From NCBI GenBank assembly GCA_002633005.1, contig NMRA01000409.1, positions 249,831-313,830 of the forward strand: a stretch of 64,000 bases of DNA. Direction: 5' to 3'. Both the position numbers and the translations under genes were made by a program. The notes under the pieces are model-generated. The model was given only the letters and a program-made list of their open reading frames with translations, was not told the origin of the DNA and did no database searches. Origin of the DNA: Phoronis australis (lineage: Eukaryota > Animalia > Phoronida). The first letter of the stretch is position 1, and each line of letters opens with the position of its first letter. Below are positions 8,050 to 59,200 of the stretch, in pieces.

Positions 8050-11000
8050 CTAGAAGAACAATCAAAACACAGCTCATTAAAATAAGAACTCAGATTTATG
8101 GCAAACATGTTAGACCAAGCCTAAATGATTTGGACACAAAATGATATAAAAATCAATAGCAAATTCTTAGAGAAAAAACTCAATTATAAAATTTTTTACT
8201 CCAGCTTCGTACAAGAACATGCGCATTAAGTTTAGGACAAGTACAAAAACACTCTTTTTACTGGGATGACCATACAACAAACACGCCAATAACTCATCTG
8301 CTAAAAAGCAATGTTAATTAATTAAAAATAAATCAATTCATTCTAATCTGTCCAAACTGTTATTCGCAATGACATTAACAATAAGTCATACTACAACAAA
8401 ACAGCTGATATCAAAACCAGGTGGAGGCATGCACATAATATAATTCAATGTTGATATAGGTTAGATTAGCCCCAACACCCACACAGGGTGCATTAGCCCC
8501 AACACCCACACAGGGTGCATTAACCCCAACACCCACACAGGGTACATTCAAAAGAGCCCTGGTAGATGCTGCATGTATGAACAGTAGTTTTCGAAATAAA
8601 CTGGATAACAGTGAAATTTGGCAGTGAACAGTCTTTACCCACAAGACCGACATTAGCTTTCTACCACGATCTACTTTCTACTTTAATTCTGGTAAAAATC
8701 TCAACAAAATTTCAATAAATTTTGCCCCATCCACGTTCTCAAAATCAAGACAACTTACCACGCAAATTTAATCCATAAATAAACAATTAGCACCTAAGAA
8801 CAATAATGTGACGTTCAACCCAACAAAAGTTACACAAAAAAGCTATTTTTTGCAACAAAGGTTCATTAGTTGGAAAAATATGTTTATCCAAGTTTGGCAG
8901 AGTTCTGTCCAGCTGATTTTGAAAACTTCTTTACACAGAGGCCCATAACACCAATGACGTGTACTGCTACACAGAAATAATTTATATAAATCATTGCTTG
9001 CACAAGTAACCAGGTGGCGACACCTTCCAATGATAAAAGAACTGCTCCCTTTGAAGGAGTTCAAAACTTCATTGCTCAGAAATCCATAAAATGCCAATCA
9101 CACTAAGGTGAATATGAATTTCCTCACATTGTAGTTAGCTTTTGTATTAAATGGTAACCTGTATCTCTAATGAATAATAAAAAAAAAATTTGAATCTTCT
9201 GAAATGAACAGAGTGGGCCAAACATAATTCAAATGACTTGAACGCGAGTCACGATGACTGATCGCGATTTCGACAAAGTGATCGAAACAACACCTGTTAA
9301 GATTCCATGGAGATTTAGTTAAAATTGAACTGGGTAATTGTTGAAAAGAAATGGATTATTTTTAAATAGTTGCAGTCTTTTTACATTGAAAGTTTTTGAC
9401 ATTGCCTATTCTAATATGTAAAGTTCTGTATCTAGCGTAGCCAAAACAAGCACTTACAAGAGCAGTGGGCTCTGAACACGACAGTTTTAACCATAAGCCT
9501 GTATTCAAAATAAGACAGTCAAACAAGAGCATTGTGGGAAATATTTGCATACCCGACAGAGTGCCCACACCAGGCTCATTTGTGACTATGTCCCCTGCCT
9601 CCTTGAGGTACTTTGACAAGACATCTAGCCTTGTTGAGGCGTCCCGTAAATCATCTTGTGCAGTGGAAGCTGTGGCCCGCTCGGCAGATGTCTTCTGGGA
9701 AGTTTGTTTGGCATCGGAGACCAATTGGTTCAGGGTCTAAAATTAAATTACAAAATAACAATAAATGTAACAGAGCGTATCAGCACTAGCTGTGACAAAA
9801 TGGTGATTATGATGACGATGATGATGGTGACAGTGATGACAATGCTGAGAATGATGATGACAATGGTGACAATGAACAGATAAGGACGGTGATGATGACG
9901 CTGATGGGGGCAATGATCACTGGTATGTACTTGGCTTTACGAGTAATGCGCTAGGGTATAAAGCTTCTGACAGACTACCGCAAACACAAGGAAGACTGCA
10001 ACCAATCTGTACACACAAGTGGTCCAAAAGCAAAGGACTGCATAGTCAGTGTGACTATTTTCAGTAAACTCACACCATGTATTCTTTTATTGCATACATG
10101 AACTACTTACTAAATAGCATACCGTATCACTGTTCCAAAATTACAGAAATTAAACTTCTTTATATTAAATTATATACCTGTCCACCTTTCAACTGATTCG
10201 CGACTAATTATTCTCCAGGTCCTACACAACTGCCGTGATTACAACTTTGACGTGACGTGAAATTTTAATTTTAATGTTAACGGCAACTGCTACAGCCATT
10301 AAAAGTCCAGATAGTATCAACATAATTACTTTCTCTGCCTCGTTGACTGAGTCAAGTGCCTTCTGGGAAGTATTTCGTCCAGACTCCACAAGAGCCTTGG
10401 TCAGTTGGTAGCTCTGCTCTATACCCAGAATCTCAGACTTGAATCGCTGCAGCTGGTTGTTGGTGGAAGTGCCACTAGATGTCGCTAGTATTGCCTTGTC
10501 CTTTACCTGAAAGAAACAACATGCGGACTTTAATGCCATCAAATCTGCAATAAAGTCAATTAAAAAAAAACGTGCAGTTTTCTGTGCAGTTTTAAGCAGT
10601 AGTCTGGTATACACTAGAAATGAGAAGAATNTGTGACAAAACGGTGATTATGATGACGATGATGATGGTGACAGTGATGACAATGCTGAGAATGATGATG
10701 ACGATGGTGACAATGTACAGATAAGGACGGTGAAGATGACGCTGATGGGGGCAATGATCACTGGTATGTACTTGGCTTTACGAGTAATGCGCTAGGGTAT
10801 AAAGCTTCTGTCAGGCTACCGCAAACACAAGGAAGACTGCAACCAATCTGTACACACAAGTGGTCCAAAAGCAAAGGACAGCATAGTCAGTGTGACTATT
10901 TTCAGTAAACTCACACCATGTATCCTTTTATTGCATACATGAACTACTTACTAAATAGCATACCGTATCACTGTTCCAAAATTACAGAAATTAAACTTCT

Positions 11001-14000
11001 TTATATTAAATTATATACCTGTCCACCTTTCAACTGACTCGCGACTAATTATTCTCCAGGTCATACACAACTGCCGTGATTACAACTTTGACGTGACGTG
11101 AAATTTTAATTTTAATGTTAACGGCAATTGCTACAGCCATTGAAAGTCCAGATAGTATCAACATACTTTCTCTGCCTCGTTGACTGAGTCAAGTGCCTTC
11201 TGGGAAGTATTTCGTCCAGACTCCACAAGAGCCTTGGTCAGTTGGTAGCTCTGCTCTATACCCAGAATCTCAGACTTGAATCGCTGCAGCTGGTTGTTGG
11301 TGGAAGTGCCACTAGATGTCGCTAGTATTGCCTTGTCGTTTACCTGAAAGAAACAACATGCGGACTTTAATGCCATCAAATCTGCAATAAAGTCAATTAA
11401 AAAAAAACGTGCAGTTTTCTGTGCAGTTTTAAGCAGTAGTCTGGTATACACTAGAAATGAGAAGAATACACTAAGCATTCGCAGAAGAACATAGTCTGAA
11501 ACTAAGCTGCAAAACTGTCTAGTAGGGTTTCTGTTCTATCAAATTCTCGGAAATTTTCACTAACCTATCACAGTTTCCTGCACAGATTTGAAGGATTGTA
11601 CAAAAGGACATTTAGTATTCCATGTACAAAAACCTTTTAACTTTATTTCCACTCATTCTTCATTGATTGACTTGAGGGTAATTTGCACTTACAGGGGTTC
11701 CGCATTTTGAGAACCAGTTTTCTCCACAGAATAACTGGCGTCAAACTGGTTCTTAAAACGCAGGACCCCTGTAAGTAACGATTGTCAATTGTAGAAGCAC
11801 AGGACCTACCGTCTTAATTATAGCGTTGATACGATTTTCCAGCGTCACTATTTCGGCCAGCAGATACTCCGTTGAATTTCTATCACTTGCCGCCTGGCCA
11901 AGATTTGTCTGTATACTATTGAAGACAGCCAAGGCATCAAGGGCTTCTTTCTGAGCATGCCCAGTGATATTTAGCACCTCCGCAGCCGTCTTCTCTCCAA
12001 GTCGAGCAGCCGCGTATGTCTGGTTTACTTTGTCCGGCGAGATGTTAGTGGCGTTGATCTGTTGAGTGATGTTAAGGATGGCACTGAGGGAGCGCAGTGT
12101 TATAGCAAGGGTAGCAGATGACAGTGCTTCAGACACGTTAGTTCTGTTGCCAATGGTAACAAGGTTCTGTCGTGCCGTACGGACATCATTAACAACTGCT
12201 GTAAGGTTCGCCATCAATTCAGTGGCAAGTTTCTGAAATAAAAACAAATAAAAACGATGTCATTTTACAGTAACCTCAAGTGTACTCTTTCCTTCAACTG
12301 CCATGTCAAGAGAGACGCGACACAGAAATGCCAATTTTACCATAATCGTTATTTCTTAGTCGTGCCCCTTGTAAGGAGCATACAAGGAGCATGGTCATTG
12401 ATCTGTTCAATGAAATTTAATGAACACACAAACATGATGGCTGGGAACTCATTGTTGGATTTACAGTTATTCAAAATCTGAAAAAACTCCAAGCACAGAT
12501 ATTGATTTGCATTTAGTAACGGCAAACATCCAAAACAACTGATATTCTCCTTTCATCAGATAGCATGTCAAAAACACAAAATAAAACAAACCAAAGCACT
12601 GTAGGTTTTGTTGTTGCGATAAGCAAAAGCAATGTTATGTTAGACTACCTTATAAACCTCGGCCGCACTTTTTGCAGTATTGGCTGACACGCGTGCCTGT
12701 GAGGCATTCTGGGTCACATACTGACTCTCCGTTATTTTTCCCTCCATATCCACCTTTCGTTGGTTCACCGTCCTTGAAGCTGATTGGATAGATGTGGAGG
12801 CTTGTCCCGCAGAAGACTCCGCGGATGAGATCTTCTGCTGAACTACACTTTCATCAACACCACTCATTGCGTCATTCAATTGGTTAACCTTGTTACGGTT
12901 GGTGTCCACTTCTTCCAAAGTGCTCCGTTTTGTAGCTATCTTTGTTGCACTATTCCGGTTATTTTCTGCCACTTGAAGCTTGTTCAGACTGTCCGCCACT
13001 CGGCGGATAAGTTCTTGCATCGTCTGATTGGCTGCAATGATACCAGCTGTCATGTTTGCGATATTATTCCACGATGCGTTGCCAGCGGCGTACACTGCCA
13101 TCTGTTGGGTGGTATACTGTTCAATTTTTGTGCGTAGACTAGCGGGTGACTCAGTCCCGCCTTGCCCGACGTCGACACTTCCGTCAAAAGCTGTAGCATT
13201 AGACAGATCAAGATGTCCAAACGTCTGGTCCAAAGCAGCCAACAGTTTGTCGAGCCGGTCAATCTCCTGGAGAATCTATATAAAAACAACAAGTACAGTA
13301 GCAGAGAATAATAATGAATGCAAAAATAACACTGAATGGTTATTTGCTTAATTTCAAAATGGATGGCCTTTAACTACACAATGCATGTTTTATTTTGTGG
13401 AGTTACACTTATTCATTTAATATTTGTTTTTTAGTCACAAAAGGCTCTAACAGAAGATTACATTATCAAACNTACATTTAATGTCCTTATTGACAAAAGG
13501 CCCCCATGGAAAGCAGTTTGAACTGATGGGGCTACCCCCATTTTATATATTACATTTAGCAATAAAAATAAATAAACTAAAACATGCAGAATCAAGAAAA
13601 GGGAAGAATGACGCAACATTAGAATGAACTTATAAGATGTTAGGCAACACTGAGACAATCGTACAGTCATATACAGTGGACTTATCTCCCCGACCTGATC
13701 GTATCCCTCACGCAGGTAACCCAGGTGACCTGTCAGTGTCTGTGCCAGGGCAATAGAGTCATTAACCGCAGTCACATTTTGCCTCATTGTGTCGAGGATG
13801 GGCCGGAACTCCTCAACAGTTTTATTGTCTGCAAAGAAACATTTAAGCCAATCAGAACTCATTGAATGTCACGGTCAAAATGATTGTCGCCCCATGTGGG
13901 AGATGAGATATGTACTAGAAGATAGCCTATATCAACCAGCGGCCACTTTTTAAGGGGAGTCCTTAACAGATACTGATTACGATTAATGGACCTATGGTCA

Positions 14001-23000: not shown

Positions 23001-26000
23001 ATCATACGTACATAACAAAACCAGTCAATAACATTCCGTACTATTCAAATAACTTAGTGTTTATACCTAATATCGACCAATCCATCTTCCTTTGTTGTCA
23101 TGGTTGGCGACTCAAAGGTGACAAGACGCCCTTCGCCATCCACGGCATCCCACACTGGGTCGGTGATCGAATCTGCAGACACCGACCAATCGCTCTTGGC
23201 AAAGGTCAGATAATATTGTGGCGCTGATGAACAAGACGTCGTATGTCCAGAACAGTAACAAGGTAAACAGCCCTGCACAGGATCCCAGGCGCCTAGTCCG
23301 AAGTAGCCTACAAATTTCAACAGACAACAAATGAAACACGAGAAGCGAACTCAGTAAAAATGTGGAAATTATTGCCTAGATCATAAAGAATGTAGTCTCA
23401 TAAATGACAAGAGCAGTCATGTGGTCTTCAAAAAAAAAAAACGATAACGGACATTCTTGAACTTTATCCAATTGACAACCAAAGTGTAAATCAGATTAAA
23501 AACGAACAACATTAGGTTGCGATAGTAAGATCCTACAAAAATGTCCAAATTTAGCAAACTTCCCAACATCATATCTCAGAAATGTCTCATCAAATTCATA
23601 TGAAATTTTAAGACTTTGTGCTTTATGCATTGCTCTTAAACCCCTGTTGGAAATTGTTTTTAAAAATAATGTTCTGTTTGTGTGTTATGGGCTATCAAAA
23701 ATAGAAATTTTATGATTTTTATGAAACAATGTGACCCAATTAAGGGCAGACTGGAAAAAGTCGTCAAAAATCAAATTCCATAAGCTTCCTACTTTCAGAA
23801 AATAGAAGTATTCTTTTACTGAATTTAAAATTCATAGTTTTGTAGGCACGTGGATAAATATGAATACTTGTTGATAAAGCCCCACATAATCTTAGATGAA
23901 ACTACAGTGACAGGTGATTTCAGAGTTGATTTCCTAAGAAAAATTCCTCAATTTTCAATAAAGATATAATTTCAAACCGTACCACAAAGTATCTTACTCT
24001 CCATAATCAAATAATTAAAAACGTCTTGATAAATGACAAGTCATTTTTTTCAAAGCATTGCAAACAAAATAAATCAGCAAGGAAATACGATAAGTGAAGT
24101 GGACTGAAACTTTGTTCAAAGTTTGTTAAACTATGTCACCAAGTTTACACATTTCACTGATCAGAAACCTTGAAAAACTTTCACAATATGACAGAAATTA
24201 ACTCAAAAGGAAATTTGAACGTTCACGCATAAATTCTAGACAGACATACTATCAGTAACAAAGTGAACTTTATCACGTTCTTCTATCTCATTTTAAGCAA
24301 ACATTTTTGTATCGAGACTGGAGCTATCTGAAGGTAAATGTTTCGGATTGACAAGAAACAAGATAAGTAAGGTAACTTGCGTCAGAGCTACATACTTAAA
24401 TGTTATCACGTTCAGTTACTGCAAACTTTTCAGTGCAATAAATCAGGTAAGTGTGTAGTGGAATTTTAATTTAAATCGCAGGCAAAAACCAACTGGGTTT
24501 AAACTTAGAAGGGTTTTCAATAGGCACACCCAAAGTGGACATCCTCTGTCACGCACACAGTTTTCACAAATCAGAAAATAGCAATATCCAACTTTTGCTT
24601 GGGCAAATATGAGCAAATTGCAAAGTTGAAACGCGTCTATTTTTCAAAGACCACGCCCAGTGGCTTTAAATCTACCAAGTGAACATAAATTATCTTGTTA
24701 ACAGGGAATAATCAATTTCTAGTGTTATCCGTAATTTCAAGCCTTTCAAGCTTTAATATAGAAGAATGATGCTGACAATTCAGTTTCAATTATTTATGTG
24801 TTTTTCAAGTCTCCTGAACGATGCAGTCAATTGCCGCCTTCTTTGTTCTGCTGATGCTGGGGTCCTATGGCCTGGCAGTCGACGTCGTTGCCCCCACCCC
24901 CACCTGCAACTGTCCTCCAGGACCCAAGGGGGAGAAAGGAGACCAAGGGGTCAAAGGTGATAAGGGAGATCAGGGACCAGCGGTAAGTAAGTTCAGTGCA
25001 TAGTACAATGAAAAAAGAAATTTCATTTTGTAGCATTTCTCATCAAAAATCAACCAAAACTGTAAGAAAAAGTCCTTTCTGGTTAAGTCGAAAATTTATG
25101 GTTCTGGTTTCCAACAGTTCTCATTATGAGACGGAATAAGCAAGGGTAGGGAAGGTTTGGAAAGCCATGATTTGTCTAGACGTGAGTAAAAAACAAATCC
25201 CGCATCGTTTTTGCTGTTCTTGGTGGATCCTCTTTTTCCATTAGGTAGAAATATAAGCTGCATTATTAGCATACAAACCATTACGTTACGTCAAACCTTA
25301 TCAACAAGTGTGTACATTTACCCTAATATCTACAACACTGCAGAACTTAACTTCGTGAAAGCACACAATTTCTGACAGTAGAAACTCTGTACAATTATAT
25401 TTTTGACGCGATTCATACCAAACCGCAACCACTTGGGTCTCATGACCATGTCTTTAGAAAAAATTTAGCAAGAAGGAAGATACACTTTAAAATTTTAATT
25501 TTGTTGTTTGATACTCATCTCAAATACAAGATATTTTTAATAAATTTTCATGTCATTTTTGTTATGAGCAACTTTGGAATTTATTTCATAAAATTCATAT
25601 CAGTCCCAACATCTGATAGCCTCTCGTGCAAAAGAGGAACATCTTGAAAATAATTCCTAACAATATTTTGGAAAACAGTGCATAATGCATAATACATGAA
25701 AGTTTCACGTGAACACATGCTCAGCCATTTCTGAAATACGACGCTAAAAAGATAACCAAATCAGGACATTTTTCTAGAATCTTGCATAACCCTAAAAGAA
25801 ATATGACAGAGTGTTGTGTTTACTCAAGTTTGATGCAATAACTCATCCTATAGGGTCCTCCTGGTGCTATTGGCCCCCAGGGTGTGCAGGGGTCAAACGG
25901 CGTGCCAGGGGCAACAGGACCACAAGGACCGCCGGGGCCCCCAGGAAAGGATATAGACAAGAATTCACTCAGTGAGTATTTAGCGACGGTCACATGGAGG

Positions 26001-29000
26001 ACATTAAACTTTCGAAGACAATAAAATTCAGCTTATTGAAAAAGTTTGCAGTTAAAGACAGAGTGAGAAAGTGGGTGTGTCTCAAAAGAACTGGCTATGA
26101 TGAAGAAAATAATGTGAAAGGTTACTCAACTTTGAAATAACGGTTAACCTGCAGAAATAATTCAGTGAGTGGATAGACTATTCATAATTTCATTTTTTGA
26201 AATGAGTACGTGTTCTGTTCATGCCGTAAAAAATATCAGAACAAGGATTTTCTTAGTCGTCAAGCTATTTCCTTCTTACAGCAATGCTACAAGTAGAGCT
26301 CACAATGCTGAAAAATCAAGTGAAGTTACTAGAGACAGCCCTGGTAAAAAAAACCAACGAACTGGAGAAGAAGCTTACCCCGTGTAAGTAGACTCTTCCC
26401 CAAGGGAGTAGTCAAAAAATGAGCTAGATAACCCCTTCAGGCACAGACAGAGAGGACAGCCCTCCTCACAGTCTGACAACTTTTGTGTTGGTGAAATGGA
26501 GACAAGGATCGAAATAGTTCATCAAAATCTGGATGGGCTCGTCCATGACTCATGCGAAGACAAAATGTCTTAATGGGCTCCTGATCCTATCAATAGGAGA
26601 ACTTGCACAGGATATTGAACCAGTGGGGTATTGAGCAAGTAGGGGTATGGGGTTAAGGGTTTTCGCACATCCTGCATATGAGGCTTCATTGTTTTGGTGA
26701 CCTCATCTCCTGCTTGGCCACCTGGGAATATTGCTAAGTCACACTTAGCAAGTTGATGTCATGCTAAGCGTCATGCCCGTCACTATAAAACTAGACTGTT
26801 TGTTAAAATTCCTCACCATGCATAAGACAGTAAGCACCCACATGAAATAGATCATGATATACTAATCTGTCCACAAAAGTAAATGCATGCAAAGTCATTC
26901 TTGGAAACTTCTACAGTAAAATTGCAGGCCTTCTGCTGTGACCGTGACCTACCCCACTGGCCCCTACCCTGGAAGTAGACTTTGTCTACCACATGCCGTG
27001 ATCAAAGTCAGTAAAACATCTTGGTTCATGATTAAGGGGTAAACAACAAGGTAGACAAACAAGGACAAAAATTCAGAGGTCAAATATATAAAAACAAATC
27101 GAAAAATGTCTCCTTCTAGTTATTCAAGGAACAAGACAATGTTGTGCCCTGGCATGGGTCTGATCTGCCTCTATTTGAGTCTCACAAGATGATTCTGGTC
27201 TTTACCCCGACTCATTTTGAAACCTGTCCTCACAGCAGCTAAAATAATGCCAGCCCACATCATTTTCAGTTGCGGTCTTGTGCTTTTTTTGAAAAGCCAT
27301 ACAAAGGCAAGAAAGAAAGTGCTAAGCAATGAGTAATAATTCAAAACAAATCACACATTATTTTTGCTCGTCTCTGGTAGATTTAAAGTTTCCTTTTTGA
27401 AAAAATAAGCAACTAAAAACTGACACACCACCTACTTGATTTTCAAAAACAGACCAGAACCATTGATCTTTGGCCTTATCCAAAAACTTTAACACAACAT
27501 ACTTTCCTAAAAACAACAATTTCAATAAAAAAATGACGAAATGCCTCTATCCAGAGAAATTTGCTGATAAATTTTTTTGAACTTGGAAAACTTTGCTGCG
27601 ACTGACAAAAGACAAATACGACAAACCATTATTATTTTCAAAAACTCAAGGAAAATGCATTACATTTGTTGTTCAATTTAGTCATCATGATCAAAAATGT
27701 CACCTACAGTCTCTTCAATTAAAGGCATAATCTCCCCTTGTTAGTACCTGTGGTCTTGGTCACTGTCTACCCCTTGCAGCCCCCATAATAAGGGACACAA
27801 GATGTCCCTTTAAACCAGTCACAATTATCATTTGCCCCTTCCATAATCAGCAATCAGGGTCCAAATTTACCTTTTCTAACCCTTAAAGTCAAACTTATAT
27901 CCGTCCATCCAAGTCCCTACAGTCGAAAACATCATAACCTTCCCCTGTCAACTCCAACATTTGGGTTATAATCTATCCCTTCAGCCCCTCAGGTCAGGGA
28001 CATAACCTGCCCCTTTTAACACCAACAACCAGGAACAGAATCTGCACCTTCTAGTACCAAAAACCACGGTTGTAGTAACTTACTCCTTCAAACCCCTAGT
28101 CATACCCATAACCGTCCTATTTCAGCCCCTACAAATACATTATTCTACAATGTCTACGATGAGCTGGCCCAGTCACAGTGCGTGGCACTTAACAATGTCA
28201 GTGGCCTCACATGGGCTGTAAGGAGGAACCGTTTGACTGACTCCTACTGTCTGGACGTCTGCAACGGGCTGACGGCGAGCATGAAGGAACGAATGAAGAG
28301 TGAGGGCGGCTATGTGGACCCAAATACGTAAGTAGTGACCTTGAACTTGACACTAGTGCAAGACACTGATTTTTTATCTAAAATACCTACTAGTAATTAC
28401 ACTAAATTTTAGTTTCCTTTCTTAAAGATATAACCTATTTGCCGTATTTACACTGCAAAACCATTTCTATATACATCAGAGAAAACAGCGCCACCTTCAA
28501 AAAGAATTCAAAACTACAACTTGAAAATTTTATGTCTGCTGCAAAGCAATCAGCTGATCACCCTCAGTAACGAATTGAAGGATGTATTATAATTCAAAAT
28601 CAAATAAAACTTTCAACGTCTAACAAAGGAGTTTACGGCAAATGAGTGAGCCAAAAAGGCCAGTGAGGTATTGCCACTCCATTACAGGACTGGCAAGTGT
28701 TTTGGTGGGCTGACCATCTACAAACAACAACCCGTACACAGCACCAACCCAGACAAACACATTCAGCCAGACTCGGGCAAGCTTGGCTTGATGACATATC
28801 GCTACTTGGAGTACGGGTGCACTAGCTACAGACCCGGGCCTAACTACTGCTGCTGTCATAATGGATAACTGTGGACGGACGAGAAAACAATGGATTAATT
28901 TGGAAATGTAACAGTTGCTTGACTTAGTCTTCATTTGGGTTTACAAGTAAACAGTTCTAAATGGATAGTCACCCTAAACCAAATACATGACACAGAAAAC

Positions 29001-32000
29001 ATTTTTGAAAATTATCTTTTCCTTTGAACGCCACGTAGTCAAGTTTTAATGGCATATGGAAAACTTTGAAGTCGAATATTGTTTAAATCCTGATTATAAA
29101 TGTTTACATGGCTTCAATGTTTACAAATAGACAGCTGTTTTAAAGACAATGGTGTAAACAAATGTTACAGAATCCTGTGAATTTAAAAAGTTTTTGAACC
29201 TCATGGCAAACATTCCTAGTTTGTGGGGGAAAATTTCTTCGTCAAAAATATCAACTGACGTTCTTCCAGAGAATTCTAGGTCACGTGATCAGGTACATAC
29301 CTGGCTTGCATTGAGCACACTTGTCACCGGTAGTTCTGTTCTTGCACTGGCACACTCCCGACTTGTCGTTACATACGGCACTGGAGCTACCGTCTGGATG
29401 GCAGTCACATGACTCGCAGCCAGCATCCGTCAGGTTGTAGAAACTGGAAAGGAAGAAAATTCGTGACCACTAACTGAACTTTGCAGAAACCACATTTGAT
29501 TAAACAAATCAGTTGTACACTGCTACATGATGCATTTGTCGATCGCTGTATTTGGCTGCTGGTTGACCTTCAATCGGGGTCATTGATTCGCTGTCTGACC
29601 TTAGTGATCAAAGGTCAAGCAACAGTTCATCGCACACATTACGCAGTTGCAAGATAGCAAACCCAGTGAATCTATGTAACCATGTAATGGCATGCACAAT
29701 ACTCCGTTCTCTATTTACGGTGTATCCAAGCTGCACGTTCTAAAAGATCAAACTAAGCTCCCGACGTATTCCTGGAACAAGTAGCACATGAATATAATGA
29801 CAGTTGGTTGCAAAATCATGCGGTTAAAGTCCAACAGTACTGAAAATATGCATCACTCAAGCAAAATAGTACGGGTGCGGCATCTGGAGAAGCGGACACC
29901 ATAACGGGGAACTTTCAGGAAGTAATAGAGGCATAACAAGTGGAACCACTAACTCTCATCACCACTTAAATGTACCAGGTGGTAATTCTTCTTTACACCG
30001 GGTGGCATAGGGGAACATTTTAACATCCCAAAAAGACTGTCATACAGTGTATGCCATAACACAACATGATGCTTTTTATAAAAAACAAAAATTACTTCAT
30101 CGTCCTCTAGAGGCCACTAGTGTCCAGTCCTATGTGACCATTCACCAGGCTGCTACTTGAAAGTCCCCTTTTAATTTTCCCTATTGTTGCAAAATCATGT
30201 TAAAAGCTGGACTTATTAATTAGTACCTAAAATAAAACGGGAGTGCACAGGTTGCAATGCGCATAAATTACTGGCCCAGTAACATTTGGTTTGTCATGTA
30301 ATGTCCCTTATGAAAACCTTGACCTTAAACCAAAGCAGGTATTACACATTTTTTCTCAGCATGATTAAAGATGCAATTCTTGAGAAATTTGGAAGGATTT
30401 CAACTAGATATATATCCTCCATCCCCAACGCAATCATCCTACCCTGCCTGACAGCCTTCACATCGTATGCCGTTGACGCCGGGCTTGCAATTGCACTTGC
30501 CGTAGTCATCACACGTGGAGCTGTCAATGGCATAGCGGCCATTGCAATCACAAGGAGAGCAACCCTCCCCTGCAATGAGAGAATGTATACTTTGAATTGT
30601 CTGCAAATTTGCATACATCAAGTACAAACCACACCCCAAGTTGCGAAGAAAACCAAATATTAACTACAAAGTCGTTGGACATCATGGAATGTTGGCATAT
30701 TCATGTGTGTAGCAAAGGGAAGTGCAAACCACTCAGAATTCTCTGGGAGACATGGAGAGCAGCATCACTATGTCTCATCGCTGTAATGACCAATGTTCAC
30801 TAACAGTTGATTGCGCTTGGAATGAAAATTAAAAAACTAGCGTACAGTGGTTGACAACCTTGCCCAAACTTGGTTAAATTTAGCTGGTTAGGGGATTACT
30901 AAATTAACGGCATCAGAAGCGTTTGAAAGGTCAATGAAACCAAGCAGTGCACATTCACCTGTGTGTAACCCCTTGTAACCAGGGAAGCAAGAGTCGCACT
31001 TGTTTCCATCCACATTCTTTTTACACGAGCATGCCCCTGTTTTGTCACATGACTGCAGCAGAGATCCCAGAGAGTTGCAGTTACAGGCTATAAAATAAAA
31101 ATAGAAAATACATGTCACAAAACTGCCGAAAATTTGCAAAAAATATAACAATGCCAATAAAGACCATGTAAGCAGAAAAATGCCTTAGATTTCAAGGAAA
31201 AATAACATCGCTAATTTTGACTTTTTGGCAGCCTTACTTGAGGTCCAACTTCCCCATATGTCATGTGACAACATGCAATGTTAACACTAAACTAATCGTT
31301 CAACATTGGGCACACAATCAAGAAATTCATTCCACAGATCAATCATCGTTACGCTGGACATGTCCAGTTTCGTTAGAAAAGCATAAAAGCATATTCTGTA
31401 GTTTCCAACAAAAAGTCGTCGAAGTTTCCTCATATCGGAAACTGGAAAAAAATTTTGAAACAAAATTTCCCATCTCAATCACAGATGATTATCAGCTTTA
31501 ATTATTGTTCAACCGTTTTGATTCAAAGTTTCCACCACAACCTCGATGAAGCTAGAAGAAACTCATCCACTTTGGAAGCTACAGTAGTAGTACAATTCAA
31601 TTGTTAATTTTTTCAAAACCTTGAATTCTGAAAAACTCAGATGACGTCTCTTCAAAAGTCGTAAACCGAAACAGAATGGTTCACACTTAAGTAGAATTAT
31701 TGTTATATGAATATCAGTTACATCACAAAGTGAGACTCCCATCATTGTTTTCCATTATTTCAATTGGATGTCAAAGAATAAAATATTACTACAAAATCTA
31801 GTGGGAGTCACCAGTCACGACAACAGTGTCATAGGAATGAGCAGAAAACTGAAAGTCAAAGCTTCACCTGGGAACTTTTGCTTCAAGTTTTCACTAACTT
31901 GTAAATAATACAGCTCAATCATGGTGTAAAATGAAACTTCAGTTCAAGAATACCCCAACGTTAAAAGACAATAACCCCCCAGTACCTTTACAGCCGTTCT

Positions 32001-35000
32001 CTCCAAACTCGTAATGGAATGCCAAGCACTGGTCGCATCGCAGTCCACCCACGCCCGGCTTACACTGACACTGACCCCCGCGAGAGTCGCAGGTTGACCC
32101 CGCCACCGTACCCGTTGGGTCACAGTCACAAGCTGCAAGTAACAATTGAAGGTTATCACGACTGACTTTCACCACCAGATGGAGACGTGTGGCTCACCTA
32201 GAGCACACACTAAAAGTGACCAGTAAAAAAACTATTTCCAAGACATGGTAGATAATGAGCTTAATTGTTAAAGTTCGTATCTCAAATACAAATAAAAGTT
32301 TATTATACTTTCGTAATAGCTACTGGTAAACTCACAGGGAGATCGCGGAGTCAACCCAGACACAATGCTAAACTCTGCTCCATTGTAGCAGTTTAGAGCC
32401 CGCCTCTCCTCCCAGTTGCCTCCCCTGGCAAGGCTNTCTCTCCAAACTCGTAATGGAATGCCAAGCACTGGTCGCATCGCAGTCCACCCACGCCCGGCTT
32501 ACACTGACACTGACCCCCGCGAGAGTCGCAGGTTGACCCCGCCACCGTACCCGTTGGGTCACAGTCACAAGCTGCAAGTAACAACTGAAGGTTATCACAA
32601 CTGACTTTCACCACCAGATGGAGTCGTGTGGCTCACCTACAGCACACACTAAAAGTGACCAGTAAAAAAACTATATCCAAGACATGGCAGATAATGACCT
32701 TAATTGTTAAAGTTCGTATCTCAAATACGAATAAAAGTTTTTTAAACTTTCGTTATAGCTACTGGTAAACTCACAGGGAGATCGCGGAGTCAACCCAGAC
32801 ACAATGCTAAACTCTGCTCCGTTGTAGCAGTTTAGAGCCCGCCTCTCCTCCCAGTTGCCTCCCCTGGCAAGGCTGTGACATTTCTCCATCAGCTGCTTGG
32901 TGGCGCTAGTGGTGACCTCAGAAACGTAAGATGTCATGTCTTGCAGAGTTGGCAGCAGAACAAGCTAAAAATGAAATAATGTACTAAAAAAGTGGAACTT
33001 TACACGCCTAAAATGAATCATCAATCAAATTTGAAACAAACAAGCCAAAAAATATGACACCTAAGCTCGACAACACACAGGGTGCAATCGTGATTAACTA
33101 TGCAAATGCACATTAAACTGACTTCATTTCAATACAGCAAAATCAATGTCAAGTACTACGGTAATTTTTTTTAACTTTCGCTGACATTCAACCTGTGCAT
33201 CAAGTAAATTTTCAAATTAACCGCAATATGATTGGTCAATACCAAATGAACGCAATATGATCGGTCAATACCAAATGAACATCTTGGTTTTTTTGCATAG
33301 ATCAGCTAATAATCAAGAGATAGACATAAGCAAAGACAAACCATACCGAATCGAGAAGAACAAAGGAACCATCAGGAACTGTTACAATGACTTCTACAGT
33401 GTAGTCCTTGTTACCTTGGAGACAAACAGGTTCTGAAACAGAGAAAATGATAATGATTAATTAAAAAGTAAACATTGTAAAAAATATCAAGAAAGAATGA
33501 AGTTTGAAGATCTAAACGCTTATTACTTCCAAGGATAAATATTGTGCAAACAGTAATGAGCACCGCCTGGTGAACACCAGCAGAACTACAAGTCTAAATT
33601 TCAAGAGAAAGATAATATGTGTAAAAAGTTAACGAAGGTTGGAAGTCGACGTGATACAAGTGTCACACATAAACAAGACTTGAATGAATGAAAATGAGAT
33701 TAAGATGTCAATATTTTCACATAAAACTACTTCTATTCTCACTTACTATTATATGATCGTGTGGTAACACGTTTCAGCAAAGTCTTAATAAAACTAATAA
33801 AGTGTCTTAAACACGACACGTTTCGACGAGGACGTCCACCATTGTCAAGCCATAGGTCACGAATGTAATGTTTACGCATACTTCTCTAAGTTATACCGGA
33901 TTTTGTTTTACACGTCATTCTTGAAAGAGGCTTGAGAATAAAGGGCATTTAGGTGAAAAACGTCACGTGCTGACATATGTTTTCATGTAAACTTTTTCTG
34001 ACAAATTTTAAACGCATTATTCCAACACCATACCTCCGTTAGACACGCTCAGTTCCTGATTGGGTAGAACTGTCTGCTGACCGCAGGCATGACCTACATT
34101 GGACTGACGGCCAAAGGTCGCCTGCACTGTAGCGTTGGAATCAGAAGGCTGTAAATGAAGGAATTTCAGAGATAATTAAAATTAGTAAAATTAATGAAAC
34201 AAATACATTATCAAGAAATCAAAAAACTATCAGATGGTAGCTTACCCCTCCTGGATATAGAGAGTAAGATGTGTTGAATTTATTTAGTTGCGTCATTTGT
34301 AGGCTTATTGGTGATTAAGTTCCTTTTTTGTTTGGTTTGGGTTTCAAAATTAAAGATCAACAAATGATTCAATAAATTTACTTGAATATTACGAATAAAC
34401 AGGTATGAAATTTAATTGTTAGAAGGTACGATAAGATAAAGTGCATTTGCTTCAAAAGTAAAAAACAACTTCTGGTTTACATCATTTACTATTACAAAAT
34501 TGGTCTTCTTTCATTACATACTCAGTTTACAGGTGATTTCTGAGCTCGATAACAACTGGCGCTTCATGATTTCTTTAGACCAGGCTCATAGAATTTCAGG
34601 TGACAATTGAAAAGAAACTTTATGAACCTGGTCTAACGGAATAATGACCTTTCAGCTCTATAGAAGCTCCGAAATCACCTCAAATTTCAAACACTAACAA
34701 ACCTCCATTCTGAAGACTGCATCGTATCTATGGTCAGCTGGCACACGGACGTCAGTGTATTTGATTGACGTCGTCTTGTCCAATCGGACGAAGCCACGCC
34801 CAGTGTGGGTGGGGCCTGATGCCCTCTCAACCACAAGCTTTGGCTACAGAGGGAAAATGAAAGAACATGTCAGACAAAACAAAGTGGTAACTGGAGAGCA
34901 AAGTTCCGGGGCCTGTTTGTCAAGTTGAAAAACGTAAACTGAATTTTTCTGAAGACTGCACATAAGTCGACATGGTAAGAGTTTTTATCGGCTGGATAAC

Positions 35001-38000
35001 GGGGTGACCATCGGTCAACAAATGCGTAATACTGCAATATCAAGTGCAAGGTACAATACTGAAACAGGGCCGGGAAATGTAATTTGTTGTCAAAAAGTTG
35101 ACGAAATCTTTTACACCTTGAGATTGGAAATACTGCCAAACAAGACATCACCCAACTTTCCTCATGATGCAAAGTTCATATAATAATAGACGAACTCATT
35201 TTGTTGTGAACACATTTTTATATTGAATTTCTCGTTTCACTTAATTAAACCTTTTTGTTTTCGACAAACAAATTTCAGCCCACAACATGAACACTGAAAA
35301 CATTTTTCGATGTGTGTTATTTTCTTGAATCTAATCCAAGAGCTTTTATAATATGATACTGCTACTATAACTGCACCTGTTACAATGGACTGTAGTTTTT
35401 TAATGAAATGTGTACAAAAAATCTTTAAAATAGGAGTATACTGCGCAACTTATCAACCATGCACAGTAACATGGAATTTTCAGAAACTGGTCACAGCTAT
35501 CGGCATTTCAAACAGAAATCCTGCAGTACGCCTCAGCCCAAACAACTTATAACTTGATCTCTGATCTTAACATTCCCAACATAATGCCCAAGCCATTATT
35601 TCCCATCTAGAGAGCTTGGAATGACCAATTACAAAAAGGAGATGAATCGTTCCACAAATAAACAGGGTTACGTTATAGAAATATTTCCTGTATTGTAAAA
35701 AGTAAGTGAAATAAAACGTTTTTGCACATTTTAAGTCAAAATAATGCTAAACAAAGATATTGAAAAAAAAGAAAACTGGAAATCAATAAGAAGAATCAAA
35801 ACCAAAAAAGAGGAAATCCACTTAAAAGAGGAAAATTCCAAACCCCGCATCATCCCTTAGCTTACATCCACATCCGTGACCTCTTCAGCTTCATAGGTCA
35901 AGTAATCCAGCGCTCCTACAAAGGACCTGGAAGACACTGCGAGGCAGTTCCGTCCACTATAGCCCGGCTTACAAGAGCACACTCCGCTTCCATCACACTG
36001 AGCGGTCAAGGATGACCCCAGGTCACAGTTACATCGGCTGCAGCCGTCGGGATTGTCAATGGTCAAGTTGTAGCTACCCAACTGTAGGAGAGAACAATCA
36101 TCAAAATGTGTCCAATGTGATGGCTTCATGCATGTCACGCAACCTGCAGGTCAGGTTGAGAACAAGTTTTATGATAGAGCTTCCGAGATAAAATAGTTTG
36201 GCTGCTATTCGAACTTTCAAATTGTAATACATGTCAATTGCTAAATGCTTTTACATAATTTTGATATATTTTGCAGTCAGATTATGAACAAGTCAATTGG
36301 AAATTTTCCGACAGATCGCTTTGGATATGTCACTAATCCTGTCATCAGGCAACACACATCAATAATTACATAACTATAATCTCTGCAATTCTTGTATCAA
36401 CGCTACGCCTTAGTGCTACCAAAATCCAATCACTTTCTTCCAGCCTCCAAGCCAGTAGGAGGGTAAAAATTATTGAAGGAACTGCTAGAAACTTGACGTG
36501 AATGAAAAGATCTGAATTCAAATTAACAGCATATCGTAGTCTTGTATAAAAGTGTAAAATACTGGGTACATCTGTTGCCATGACTCCAGACATCCTACAG
36601 TGAGACTTGGTACCAAACATACCTTACACTGACCACACCTTGTACCCTGGGTGTTCTCTTTACACAAACACACCCCCGTTGTCTTGTTGCAGAAGTTGAT
36701 ACTGTTAAAACTCCCCGCTGCTATACAGTTGCAGGCTGAAATACGAACGTCCAGTCAACAAGTATCAACAAACTGTCGGCCGCTTTCAAAACTAACACCT
36801 GTCATTCGGTTTAAATTCCAGATGGCACCAGTTTCTAAACCAATGCTAGTCCAGCACCTGGAGTCTAATTTTTTTACTCAAATTATTTTTAACATTTTCC
36901 ATTAATAAGTACAAGCTCAATAAAAAAGTCTATCATTCTCTACTCGAGTATATTCTGGATTTCGTGGTTGACTTTGCACCACAGTGGCAATGTGCAAATC
37001 TGAAAAAATAGCCACCAACAACAGAGACATCACAACATAAAAAACATTATATTGAAGCGGAAGCTTTTCCCGAGTCTACAAAAATCTCAAAAGTCGCACT
37101 TACCCTGGCATCCGTTGGGGTTGTTTGGGTCGAGGTTCCAGAAGGTGTCCTTACATTCATCGCACACCCTCCCCCCAACATTGGCCTTACACTGGCACGT
37201 CCCTGTCTCCGAGTCGCACAGGAAGTTACTGGCAGACGCAGTACCCTGGATGGAGCAGTCGCAGGCTGCAAAGAATGAAATGTGGGCAACATGATAACAG
37301 AACATTTTTCTACAATTCATAAAAATGGACAGTAAAAGTTAAACAGTTTAGTGGCAATAGGAGAATAGGCATGGGTTAAGCATTGTCCTACGAGAGGAAT
37401 AATGCTACATTAGTTGCTTTTAATAGCTCAAACTTGGAGATGTAGATTCATTTATTTTTACCAGAAAGGTATTTTCAACACAAAATGAATCTCTGCGTAG
37501 GTCATACAGTGCTTTTTTAATTCTAGAACAGGCGAGAGTTCAATTCAGAACACTTTGCTATTGGAATGTTTCACAAAAATGTAACCTTTTCAATAACAGC
37601 AACCATTCAATCATGTATCTGCAATTGTTTCAATCAATTTTTTAATTATTTCATGAAAAGGGGAAGTATGACATCTTGACCTAGGTATCAGCTGTGTTAG
37701 TCATTTGTTTGGAGAGACACAGGAAATTTTAAAAGCAAACTTAGAATTTAATCTTGGAATCACTTCTGTCCATTTTGAGAAAAATATCACATCAAAAGAT
37801 CACCATTTGGGAATCAGTTTTGGCTAAAATTAAAATTCATCTCAATATGAAGTTTTTAATTAAAATACAACGGGAAGAGTACATATATTAACAGTCACAA
37901 GATAATTTGTACAATCTGCAGCAGATTAAAACTATTCATAATAGGGCTCCGAGGAACCTACGACTATCAAGTTTAAGAACAATTACAAAGATGTCGAGCC

Positions 38001-53200: not shown

Positions 53201-56200
53201 TTCCTCTCCTGTTTTCATTAAAAGGTGCCCAGGGTGCTCCTCATTCTAACGCCCTTGTCGCCAGTTCGCGTGCGCCGCTCCCGTTGTTGTATATTTTTGG
53301 CTACGCCAATGCAAATACCGTTTCTTGCAGAAACTCGAGGAGTATTCCCGGATAAATAAATAACTTGTGAACAGACAGCGTAGAAAGATACAAAAAGTAA
53401 TCTACAGGAGCAAGTGACTGTCTGGTTTATGGTCTTGCAGGACCATTTGAAAATGCCCAAATTTTGCTGACTTCGGAACACCATACATGTATCTCAGAAA
53501 TGACTGATTGGATACACACGAAACACTATTACTGTATACTATTGTTTATAAAATGGCTCACTTTTGTATGAGGGGCTGTACAAACGTATGCTTTTCCTAA
53601 AAAAATACTTAATAAGTTTTATAAGACGAAAACGAACGGATAATTTAGAAAATTGCAACAGCGCTTTTGAGTTTTATCTTGAAATTTGGTCGTGTTATTG
53701 AAAATGTACCTTTCTTTTTGCTAAATTGAATAAAAATACGACGTGTAAAAGCCAACAATCAAATTGTAAAGGCTATCTACTTTGAGAAAATGTATACTTT
53801 TATTGAGTTAAAATCCACAGTTATGCAAATATTTGGCTAAATATACATGACTATCTTACGACAAGGACCTACACAATCCTAATTATTTCGTCTGTTTTCA
53901 AGTAACGTCATTGATATTTTATGGTGACGTCATTTATGTTTTATGGTTTCTGTAACATGCAAAATATCCAAGAAAGCAAAGAAGAAATAAAAATAGACAC
54001 AGGTAGAAAGCTAGCAAAAATTTATGTTGGAAAGAAAATATGGATTCTTGTCAAAACATATATTACCATTATCCCAATAATTAACAGCACCATCACCGTA
54101 TGTTTCACCGTCCTCACCGCCACCGGAACCACCACCATCATCATCTCTATAGCAACCACAGCCATCACTGTTACCACCACCACCACCATCACCACCAGCA
54201 CAACAACCACCACCTCCACTTTCACAACCACCACCATCGCCGCCTCCTCCACCATCACCACCACCATCACCACCACCAGGAGAGGAGACAGTGTGGCTCA
54301 GTGGTTTGAGCTCTGGGCGGCCTGTTCCAAGAAACTGACTTAGTTCATTTTTACTTAAGTTTAAGATTTGTCTTAACTTCCAAACTTTGAAACTTCCACT
54401 TTCGTTAGTCAAAATTAAGACAATACTTATGTCAAACACTTAAGTCGAACTTAAGATCTCTTTCTTGAATTGGTTTTGAGGCAAATTTAACTTTCATTTT
54501 AACGTTTCCTAAAATTTAAGATTTGTCTTAGCTAAGCCAGTTTTGTTGGAACGGGCTCCTGGTCTCCTGTTTGAGAGTCCTAGGTTCGAATCCTGGCTTC
54601 ACTGGTTGACAATCGAGCATTGAACTAATGTTGCTCCTCGGTCTTACTAGTGAATGTATGCTAGGGAATGAACGAGAACCCATGGGTATAATGCGAAAGC
54701 AATCTGGGGCTGTGCTCGTATATAACTCCACCACTTTCACCACCACTACCACGATCAATACTACTACATGTACTACCACCATCGCCACGACATCCAACAT
54801 CACCATCATCTTCAGTACCCCCACCACCACCTTCGACACCACTACCACCACCACCACCATCGTCGAAACCACACCACCACCACGCACACACGTGATCTTT
54901 TTAATGATTTCGTTTCTTGGCTTCACCATTGTAGGAGCAAGTGAGCTCGGAAGTTACTACGTGAAAGAACTCCACACAGTGTCCAGTCGCACCAACACAA
55001 TTGCAAAGGAAGGACTTCTGTTCTTAGCAGGTTACGGTTCTCTAGACGCTGTGGTAGGTGACACACTGCCGAGATATTCAAAGGCCTAATATGAGCATTT
55101 AGGCCTCAGCACCTACATCTGAAGTAAGGCGTACGCGCCTATATGAAAAGCATTTCAGCCATGACCAAGACGCAAATTTTTAAAATAACATGCGCGTGAA
55201 ACTTTACGTTTCCGTGACAAAACGGAAAGTATTCAATAGGAGTGACACCGATTACACAAAGATATTTGAACCTCGGGGTATTTACCCACAATGCAGTTCG
55301 CTGGTTGTGTTGGTTGTGTTTTCTCTCCATTGGAGGTTCTGATTTTATTTTATTTTAATTGGTGTTTTGCTTTTTTCAAATTTTTCGTGCCTGATGCCGG
55401 CAAAGTTTTACTGGTATGCAGTCGGCTGCTACTCCAACGGCACGAAGTTGGACAAACTTGTGAAGTATCCATAGATGTGATGTTTTCCGACGTGATTTCC
55501 AGAATCATTCCGAAATTTCTAAGACGAGTTCAATGTTAAAACGAGTTTCCTTACCTCCAAGACAAATGAGATTTCTGTGCGGGACCGTCCAATTGAAGTT
55601 TAGTCGAATACGACGGCTAAATTCAAATTAAACTAACTTTTTATGTTATGCATAAAAACGAATCTTAATTTTTGATCCGGGTAAATACCCAATACAATAT
55701 TTTCATACATTCTCTTAATCGAGGTTCCCGAAAAAATGTGATCCACAGTTATTCTTCGAGTGGTCTAAACGAAAACTTTGCGTTTTTGACGAAAAAATCA
55801 TTTCAATTATTTAGTGAGAAGTACTAACGTACTTAGGACAAAAACACATAATTCATGACGAATAAGATTTTTAAGAGAAAATTGTTTGCACCAATACATG
55901 TCAGCGAATCTTGTGCGCATGCGCCCATATCCCAAAGAATTGAGCAAAATATTTTTGAAAAACTCGCATACATTTATGCACGTTGTAGATCTCAGAGTTG
56001 TATGCAGCACGGTAGGTTACTGGAGTCTTTGGCGAGATTAAGCTTAAGTAACCAGAAGTCTCGCTAAATTTTTCTCAAATACAAGTAAATGCTACTGTAC
56101 ATTTGAACTTTTGACTACATGTGAAGTCGGAATATTTAGCTACACATGTAATAATTACAACGGTTTACATTCTGACGAATCAACCGTAAATATTAAAAAT

Positions 56201-59200
56201 AAGACCTTTATGGTATTTTCGGATGGTATTGTTTTTTAAAGTGATATATATTTATTGAAGAATCCACTGTACATACAAAGAAATAATGACAAACCCAGAA
56301 ATCGCGAAGCATTATATCAGGGTTATAGACAATTTATAAATGAACATATGAAAACATTCATGTAAGGAAATCTAAAGCAACAATATTTATAGACGGTACA
56401 TAAAAATTTGCTAACGTTGCTTAGGAGGAATTCATTGAGAGCAAGGTCAAGGTTAAGACTACCATTCAATAATAATGCAACTTTAGTAGGGATAATATTA
56501 CAAAAAATGAGTGCTTTAACAATTGATTGGTTTTCATTGAGTGCACAAAAGAGTGAGTCTCTCAGGTATTTGAAGAAAACATGAGGATAAGATTGATGGT
56601 CACCACATTTACAGTTTGGAGAGAGATTACTAAAGTTATGCCTAAACTTGTCGGAGTTGAGGAAAAGACAGCATCTTGATCTGTACAATGCTATTTCGTT
56701 TCAGGGGGAAGCGAGAATTGTGTCAGGGCTATATAGTTGTCAAAATTATGACGAGTGGTTTTAAAATTGTTTTTACACTAATAAACGAGTTACTTTCCAT
56801 AACTGAGACTAGAAGAGAATTCCAGTTGTTGATGCATATCATAACTGTAGACCTTCTGAATGCCTGACTGAATGACGGAGGAATTGCACATGGGGTGGAG
56901 GATCTCAAATCACTACGATGGCCTTGTCTAGTGTATAGATCAAATATTTTTTGACAGAGGCGTTGTTGACATTGTTTATTACCTTGAAAGTAAATGTGGT
57001 CATGTGAAGATTGCGTCGAGTAGACAGTTTGGGCCACTTGAGACTATTCAAAACCTTAAAACTATTCGATCCACTGTAAGCTCCGGTTATGAGTAAGGCA
57101 GCTTGAAACAGTAATTTCTCCAACCGTTGGAGTGCACCAGTGTTGGCAGACTGATATATAATATCACAGTAATCGATGTGTGGAAGTATAAAGGAATTGA
57201 ACAAAACTTCTAAATGTGTAGAATTCAGATGACCAGAGACAAGCTTAAGTGGATTAATTAGTTTCTGAGTTTTTTGTACGAGCACCCGAACGTGAGAAGT
57301 GAATGAGAGTTTTTCATCGAACAGTATACCAAGATGTTTGTGAGACTGTTTTCTAGGAATGATTTCATCATTAAGTTTAAGGTCATAAGACGGGTCAACA
57401 AGGAAGAGAGCATTAGTTGATTTGGAGAAGGTGAGGTCAACGCTTTTTTCTGGTTTAAAATTCATTCTCCATTCTTGTGACCAATAGCTGAGTTTATTAA
57501 AGTCGGTGTTGAAGCTGCAAAGAACTTTCAGGGCTTCGCCCTGCGAAGGGATAAAACAGCGCCGTGTCATCTGCATCAAGGTATGTGCTACATGACAGGT
57601 TATCAGGAAGGTCATTAATATATACCAAGAAGAGAAGTGGGCCCAAGATGTAACCCTGCGGTACACCTGCGTTTACAAATCTAGGAGGGGATAAAGTTGA
57701 AAGTACGCCGTCGATACGAACACTGTATGTACAGTACGATCGGAGAGATATGAGGTGGTTTAGAAGATTCAAAGTAATGCCATAGGATCGAATTTTGTGA
57801 AATAGATGGTCGTGAAGGACATAGTCGAAAGCAGAAGCTATATCTAGAAAAATGGACCTGACACTCTCGCCCTTTTCAAAATGTAAATGAATATCATGTA
57901 CTATTTCACCAAGTTGTGCCACGGTGCTGTTCCCACGCAAAAAAAAACAAATTGACGATGACATATCAAGTTGTTTGTTTGAGAAATTTAAGACTACTTT
58001 AAGCAATGATCTCGAAGATTTTGGATAGGGTGTTAAGTTACTGGGCGATAATTTGAAATTCCAGTTTTGGAGTCTTTTTTGTGAATAGGGACCATAATTC
58101 CATGTTTCCAAGAAGACGGATACATACCTAGCTGAAGAAGATTGTTAAATAGGTTGGATAAGGGCAAGGTAATTTCGTTGGCAATCATTTTGATCATCTT
58201 GCTGGTGATTAAAGCTGTGCCACCATTATTTGGGTCAATTTCATTGAGATACTTCTTGGCATCAGTTTGAATAGCCCGAATATCAGACACTTGATTGAGA
58301 CAACGTTCACGAAGAAAGGGAAAGTTACCTACATGTACATGTACTTCAGTTGGTGTAATGTGGCTTTTGTTCGTGAAAAATTTGAGAGACAGGTCACACT
58401 TGTTACTGCTACTTGAGGCTACGTTACCATTGTGGTTGATAACAGGATAAGAGGATTGTTGTTGACTGCCGCGTATTTTATTGATGATGTTTTAGTATTC
58501 TTTGGAGTTCTTGCTTGCATTGTTAATCTGTTGAAAAAGCTTGTGGCAGTGATCAGCTTTGGCTTGATTTACTAAAGCCTCTACCAGGCGTGAGTGCTCC
58601 TTGTATCTGTTGTAGATTACAGTGTTGTTAGATCTTCTGAAAGAGCTGTAAAGTCTGTTTCTTGTGCGGATTGCCCGTTTAACATTACTGTTGAACCACG
58701 GTGTCAGACGATTGTCTGTGTGGGTTTGTTTAAAAGGTAGCTATGCTTTGAAGTTGTGCGTAGATGGAGAGTGAATAATCAAATCCAGTAATTAATTTAT
58801 TATATGATAACCCCTAATTAGACAAATGAACCTATTGTTAATTAAGTAATCAACTACAAAGAGAAACTACGCTAGCGCCCTCTTTAAAGATTACTTTAAT
58901 CAAACAACCAAACGATCAAATGTCTTATCTGCTATCCAAGCTAGGACTCTCCACTTGTTGGATGTCTGTCCTGTTGGTGAATCTTCTAACTACACACACT
59001 GTATAACGACAGTGTACTTGTTGGTCACCGTCTCTGGTGATGCAATACTTGCAGGCAATTTCTTCTACCCGCGACTCTTCTTGCTGGTCACAGTCTCTGG
59101 CTGATGACGCAACACTTCAGTAGTATCTTACTACCCACAATGCAAGTGACAAGCTCTTAGTTAACTTCCGGTTCGTTAACCCTTGCCCTTGCCAAGATCC

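Follow-up and report, generated by a model that had tools for sequence, protein, structure and literature searches.

A gene of the phoronid Phoronis australis carries an unnamed protein domain as the head of a collectin-like scaffold. It lies on the forward strand of a 64,000-nucleotide stretch of DNA (contig NMRA01000409.1, positions 249,831 to 313,830; "the window"), and its five coding exons encode a protein of 254 amino acids (aa). The heads known from defence collagens are of three kinds, namely C-type lectin, fibrinogen and gC1q. Here a scaffold of a known kind bears a head from an undescribed domain family with the motif GPNYCCC, and the gene is real and expressed. An initial annotation, made from the sequence alone, had proposed a collectin-style scaffold on one spliced gene with a head outside the named families, and this proposal is supported.

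The joined coding exons (24821-24982, 25854-25971, 26282-26383, 28126-28327 and 28688-28868, +) give an open 254-aa frame as annotated, and the four introns between them are all GT..AG, with phases 0, 1, 1 and 2. RNA data for the locus come from four runs, X1-X4. All four coding junctions, for which an RNA check had been proposed, are covered in X2 (33, 35, 13+19 and 47 reads, in order) and in X3 (2, 4, 2+4 and 20 reads), while no read crosses them in X4. Furthermore, an extra intron of 363 bases (24447-24809, GT..AG; 14 X2 reads) places a non-coding exon at 24219-24446 (+), whose donor at 24447 is fixed and whose start is approximate, 24219 being the edge of a coverage bin. The next exon begins at 24810, and its ATG at 24821 is preceded by an in-frame stop two codons upstream. 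The 3′ untranslated region extends from 28869 to about 29130 (+), as read from a contig piece (28734-29130) and read depth. No single read spans the whole transcript; collagen and head are linked by one X1 contig over exons 2, 3 and 4 and by the chain of junction reads; collagen and Cys-rich exons on different transcripts, the outcome that would have contradicted the annotation, did not appear. The two parts thus belong to one spliced, expressed animal gene. Indeed, a profile made from bacterial copies of the head only (described below) scores 24.8 bits on exon 4, 36.2 bits on exon 5 and 61.3 bits on the spliced head, and therefore supports the splice model independently.

The protein begins with a hydrophobic N-terminus, seen in the sequence as annotated, in which a signal peptide is predicted at about aa 1-19; the product is predicted to be secreted. 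The Cys pair C29-N-C31 follows, and then 18 uninterrupted Gly-X-Y triplets (aa 34-87), seven of them on coding exon 1 (24810-24982, +), where the Pfam Collagen match stays under the cut-off (E 3.7e-4), and 11 on exon 2 (25854-25971, +), which ends in a short linker. The phase 1-1 exon 3 (26282-26383, +) encodes a heptad neck, a predicted coiled coil at aa 94-127, with L or V in eight of the ten a/d positions of the heptads L93-K124. The head, predicted as mixed helix/strand, has 127 aa and 8 Cys. Its first half on exon 4 (28126-28327, +) contains a helix with C146, an AVRR strand and a CxxxC helix (C169/C173), and its second half on the coding part of exon 5 (28688-28868, +) contains C199, GL..YRY, C239, GPNYCCC and the stop. 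The CNC segment, the triplets, the neck on its own exon and the Cys motifs of the head had all been listed from the sequence and were recovered on translation.

Collectins are defined by an N-terminal segment with one to three Cys, collagen, a coiled-coil neck and a C-terminal globular head in the descriptions drawn on here (PMC8006919, PMC10855846). The window protein has the same four-part order as MBL, SP-A, SP-D and CL-K1, and its Cys segment, collagen and neck agree with the definition; in contrast, C-type lectin sequence is absent from its head, whose family is a separate one and mostly without collagen. The protein should therefore be treated as a collectin-like scaffold, not as a collectin. 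With ficolins and C1q-type proteins it shares a Cys segment and a short collagen able to multimerise a head, but Pfam finds no fibrinogen or gC1q domain in it, and ficolins are described without a neck in the part of PMC10855846 used here. The annotated absence of EPN and WND from the head holds, whereas that of QPD does not, this tripeptide being present at aa 221; among 126 domains of the family, EPN occurs in one, QPD in two and WND in none.

In the Pfam searches neither head exon nor the head-only relatives gave a match to fibrinogen-like or gC1q domains, as annotated; no Lectin_C match was found on the head or its relatives, and no NC1 or C4-type match. More generally, no characterised family matching the head was found in the profile and family searches run, and such a match would have counted against the annotation. 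It is improbable that the head is a heavily remodelled known fold (C-type lectin, MVL, SUEL or the MGAT5 C-terminal domain type) and the protein an aberrant collectin. The rows for those folds sit amid unrelated folds, none of those Pfam families appears in the list of 25 obtained for 85 members (E 0.1), and the lack of WND from all 126 domains points the same way. For the MVL mannan-binding lectin domain (PF12151), HHalign against seven MVL domains gave a probability of 0.4% (four choices of master row), and the window head differs from it in having twice the length, one more helix and a long loop.

Searches with exon 4 or exon 5 alone recovered no relatives. In a scan of prokaryote genomes, DNA encoding GPNYCCC was found at 95 loci, and the whole head pattern stood in one frame piece at 15 of these (Parabeggiatoa, Thiotrichales, three Entotheonella, Chromatiaceae, Oligoflexus, Sulfitobacter, Salipiger, Roseibium, Aliiroseovarius, two Neomegalonema, one Myxococcota and one unclassified bacterium). 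The profile built from these 15 copies, and thus without the window sequence, places the spliced head in the family across both exons, the best shuffle scoring 7.2 bits (997 scored of 1000); the half-head of exon 4 reached an HHalign probability of 97.2%. When 1,688 candidate proteins of 32-342 aa were searched with a profile of 13 bacterial rows and both exons, 491 matched with E values of 1e-5 or lower, and details were taken from the 120 of these matches that were listed. The named ones among those listed come from Branchiostoma, Owenia, Lingula, Ruditapes, bacteria and Fabomonas, and all are hypothetical or uncharacterised. The top Atlas match for a bacterial member is an unnamed cluster with 77 members, of which 94% are eukaryotic (score 0.93; the other two listed are below 0.9). 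A literature search whose coverage excluded supplements and subscription journals found no paper that contains the GPNYCCC motif or any of six member gene ids.

In a quick unrooted tree (125 domains, 110 columns, one short fragment excluded), the window head groups with all 17 named animal rows and 11 unnamed rows (support 97), beside amphioxus (support 89) on a long branch. The tree lacks a true root and therefore no direction of transfer is claimed. The head domain is rare in bacteria, and no match was seen in a sample of 400 other genomes of the Salipiger class. The Salipiger copy (L100:1492-2100) is flanked by frames whose translations read as transposase-like; with the empty class sample, these flanks are in line with patchy, mobile spread. 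On sequence grounds, the head represents an unnamed, undescribed domain family, widespread and apparently mobile, in invertebrates, protists and scattered bacteria. The reading in the initial annotation is changed in that the head is not particular to the window protein, the domain being mostly collagen-free and also bacterial.

Among the 120 listed proteins the domain is C-terminal in 115, a hydrophobic N-terminus is present in 86 and the domain is repeated in five; 56 have at most 160 aa and are essentially the head alone. The nearest relatives among those listed, two amphioxus proteins (P0112 and P0107; 84 and 78 bits), are such head-only proteins. The only one with collagen, P0067, has a collagen stalk before the same head; it shows a signal-like start and 15 Gly-X-Y triplets without a neck. 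It lies inside the animal group of the tree but away from the window protein, so that a collagen stalk may have arisen on two occasions. Other partners also occur. P0102 and P0106 have the head ahead of a fibrinogen-C domain, and some longer relatives have what reads as a coiled-coil-like stretch before the head. In Neomegalonema-like bacteria (L003, L026; P0045, P0053-P0057), DUF3011 (PF11218) precedes it. Four of 13 longer proteins picked end in the head after a weak, sub-cut-off match to the N-domain of Bdellovibrio MAT fibres (E 7e-9 to 4e-3). MAT fibres are described as trimers with variable binding tips, one of which binds glycans (PMC10769870); the window protein differs in having collagen and a neck in place of a beta-helical fibre. 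From these arrangements we infer an exported module that is exchanged between stalks and held at the tip, and so behaves like a binding head.

The favoured reading, to which we give an about even chance, is that the predicted secreted protein likely forms a three-chain collectin-like stalk whose heads likely bind a ligand on a surface, a microbial or cellular glycan being the most likely one. By analogy with collectins, the 18 triplets would form a short triple helix, C29/C31 would join trimers into bigger bouquets, and clustering would turn weak single-head binding into avid binding or agglutination; the neck would align the three chains in register (PMC8006919, PMC10855846). The stalk would thereby display three copies of a disulfide-stapled head, whose putative ligand is probably a glycan; this binding step is drawn only from domain placement and conserved residues. 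The head itself would be a single domain, some 115 aa long and held by four disulfides. Cys columns of the family vanish in pairs, and C199 and C239 probably bond with each other because both are lost together (10 of 10 losses, p 6e-15). C146, C169 and C173 would bond with the terminal CCC. The window head keeps eight of the ten family Cys, and both Cys of another pair are missing in seven domains including this one, which would have lost the fifth disulfide of the family. The candidate binding site consists of near-invariant residues, His (122/126 domains), Arg (121/126), Tyr (120/126) and an Asn-Tyr. Thr204 replaces the His in the window head, and therefore its ligand may differ from that of the family.

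The rival explanations partly overlap and are not all mutually exclusive. The same kept residues would suit a small extracellular enzyme family with a His/Arg/Tyr site, of which the window copy, with its Thr, would be a dead or altered member on a stalk. This is very improbable: the family domain has about 100 aa and five disulfides, and the bacterial copies are single in the five genomes checked and share no neighbour genes in the five loci read. A collagen-stalked signalling protein is decidedly improbable as well. The overall layout is that of adiponectin/CTHRC1-like signalling proteins, in which role the head would bind a host protein receptor, and small secreted disulfide-rich head-only members suit a ligand role; however, the domain is also found in bacteria and protists, which have no animal receptors. 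Somewhat unlikely is a structural protein of matrix or mucus, whose head would self-associate or dock on matrix like the NC1 of short-chain collagens, with no role in recognition. Invertebrate matrix is described as commonly containing short collagens that end in a globular domain (PMC12549020), and spongin-like short-chain collagens are likewise secreted, short and invertebrate, with a Cys-rich C-terminal domain (PMC12549020). Expression without known challenge, at a read depth about 10x that of the host laminin gene in X2, and at least 10 Owenia paralogues among the matches listed, several with coiled coils, suit this role too. Against it, the window protein has a separate neck that could already trimerise it and gives no NC1/C4 match, the domain stands alone in many relatives and is tandemly repeated in a few, and its conserved polar and aromatic non-Cys residues suggest a site, not a scaffold.

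Several points weigh against recognition by a collectin-like protein. Judging from the listed relatives, the collagen scaffold is not a conserved class, and the loss of a His kept by nearly all domains could mean a weakened function in the window copy. The structural model represents a relative rather than the window protein. The MAT matches all lie under the curated cut-off of 60 bits, as does a TSP1 match in P0120 under its own. No GKxGP motif, which we take to be the MASP-docking motif, was found in the collagen stretch. In favour of the main reading, synonymous changes account for nine of the 13 coding variants visible in 40 of the 139 rows of the variant table (p 0.0006 when compared with all changes; 0.011 with transitions). 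A broader proposal is tentative, and possible rather than probable: in the GPNYCCC domain, invertebrates, protists and scattered bacteria would share a new lectin-like fold for recognition, and its mounting on a complete collectin scaffold in this animal would make a further kind of defence collagen.

The flanking exons encode laminin EGF, N-terminal and B domains. They are joined over a 5,993-base intron (23308-29300, -; four opposite-orientation reads and splice sites) that encloses the whole collectin-like gene, and reads on that gene are oriented opposite to reads on these exons; the gene is therefore nested antisense in a laminin intron. The host (~9400-47400, -) is a multi-exon laminin chain with an N-terminal domain, EGF repeats, laminin B (IV) and coiled-coil exons. 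The stretch ~34870-36150 may be a second, LF-type domain, in which case the chain would be beta/gamma-like. Tandem duplications at 1008-2537, 9791-11467 and 31998-32874 (765, 840 and 438 bases, 97-98% identity, a single N between copies) probably represent two alleles that the assembler joined; laminin exons are duplicated in two of the three. Short dispersed repeats at 23520-23810, 25420-25460, 25680-25700 and 27190-27460 attract loose-ended reads from elsewhere in the genome. A low-complexity stretch at 53900-55100, with Thr-rich and Val-rich frames, may be a repeat or a mucin-like exon, and 56900-60320 (-) holds a broken element like a long interspersed nuclear element, with a reverse transcriptase piece (RVT_1, E 1e-12).

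The gene combines all four parts of the collectin layout with a different, unnamed head domain, and it brings to light an unnamed family that numbers at least 491 small proteins, most of them secreted. Structure and ligand are directly testable through the short intron-less bacterial members and an amphioxus member of 144 aa. Should the head bind glycans, a lectin class would be added, along with a candidate immune receptor of invertebrates; if it does not, it would still be a new extracellular domain family.
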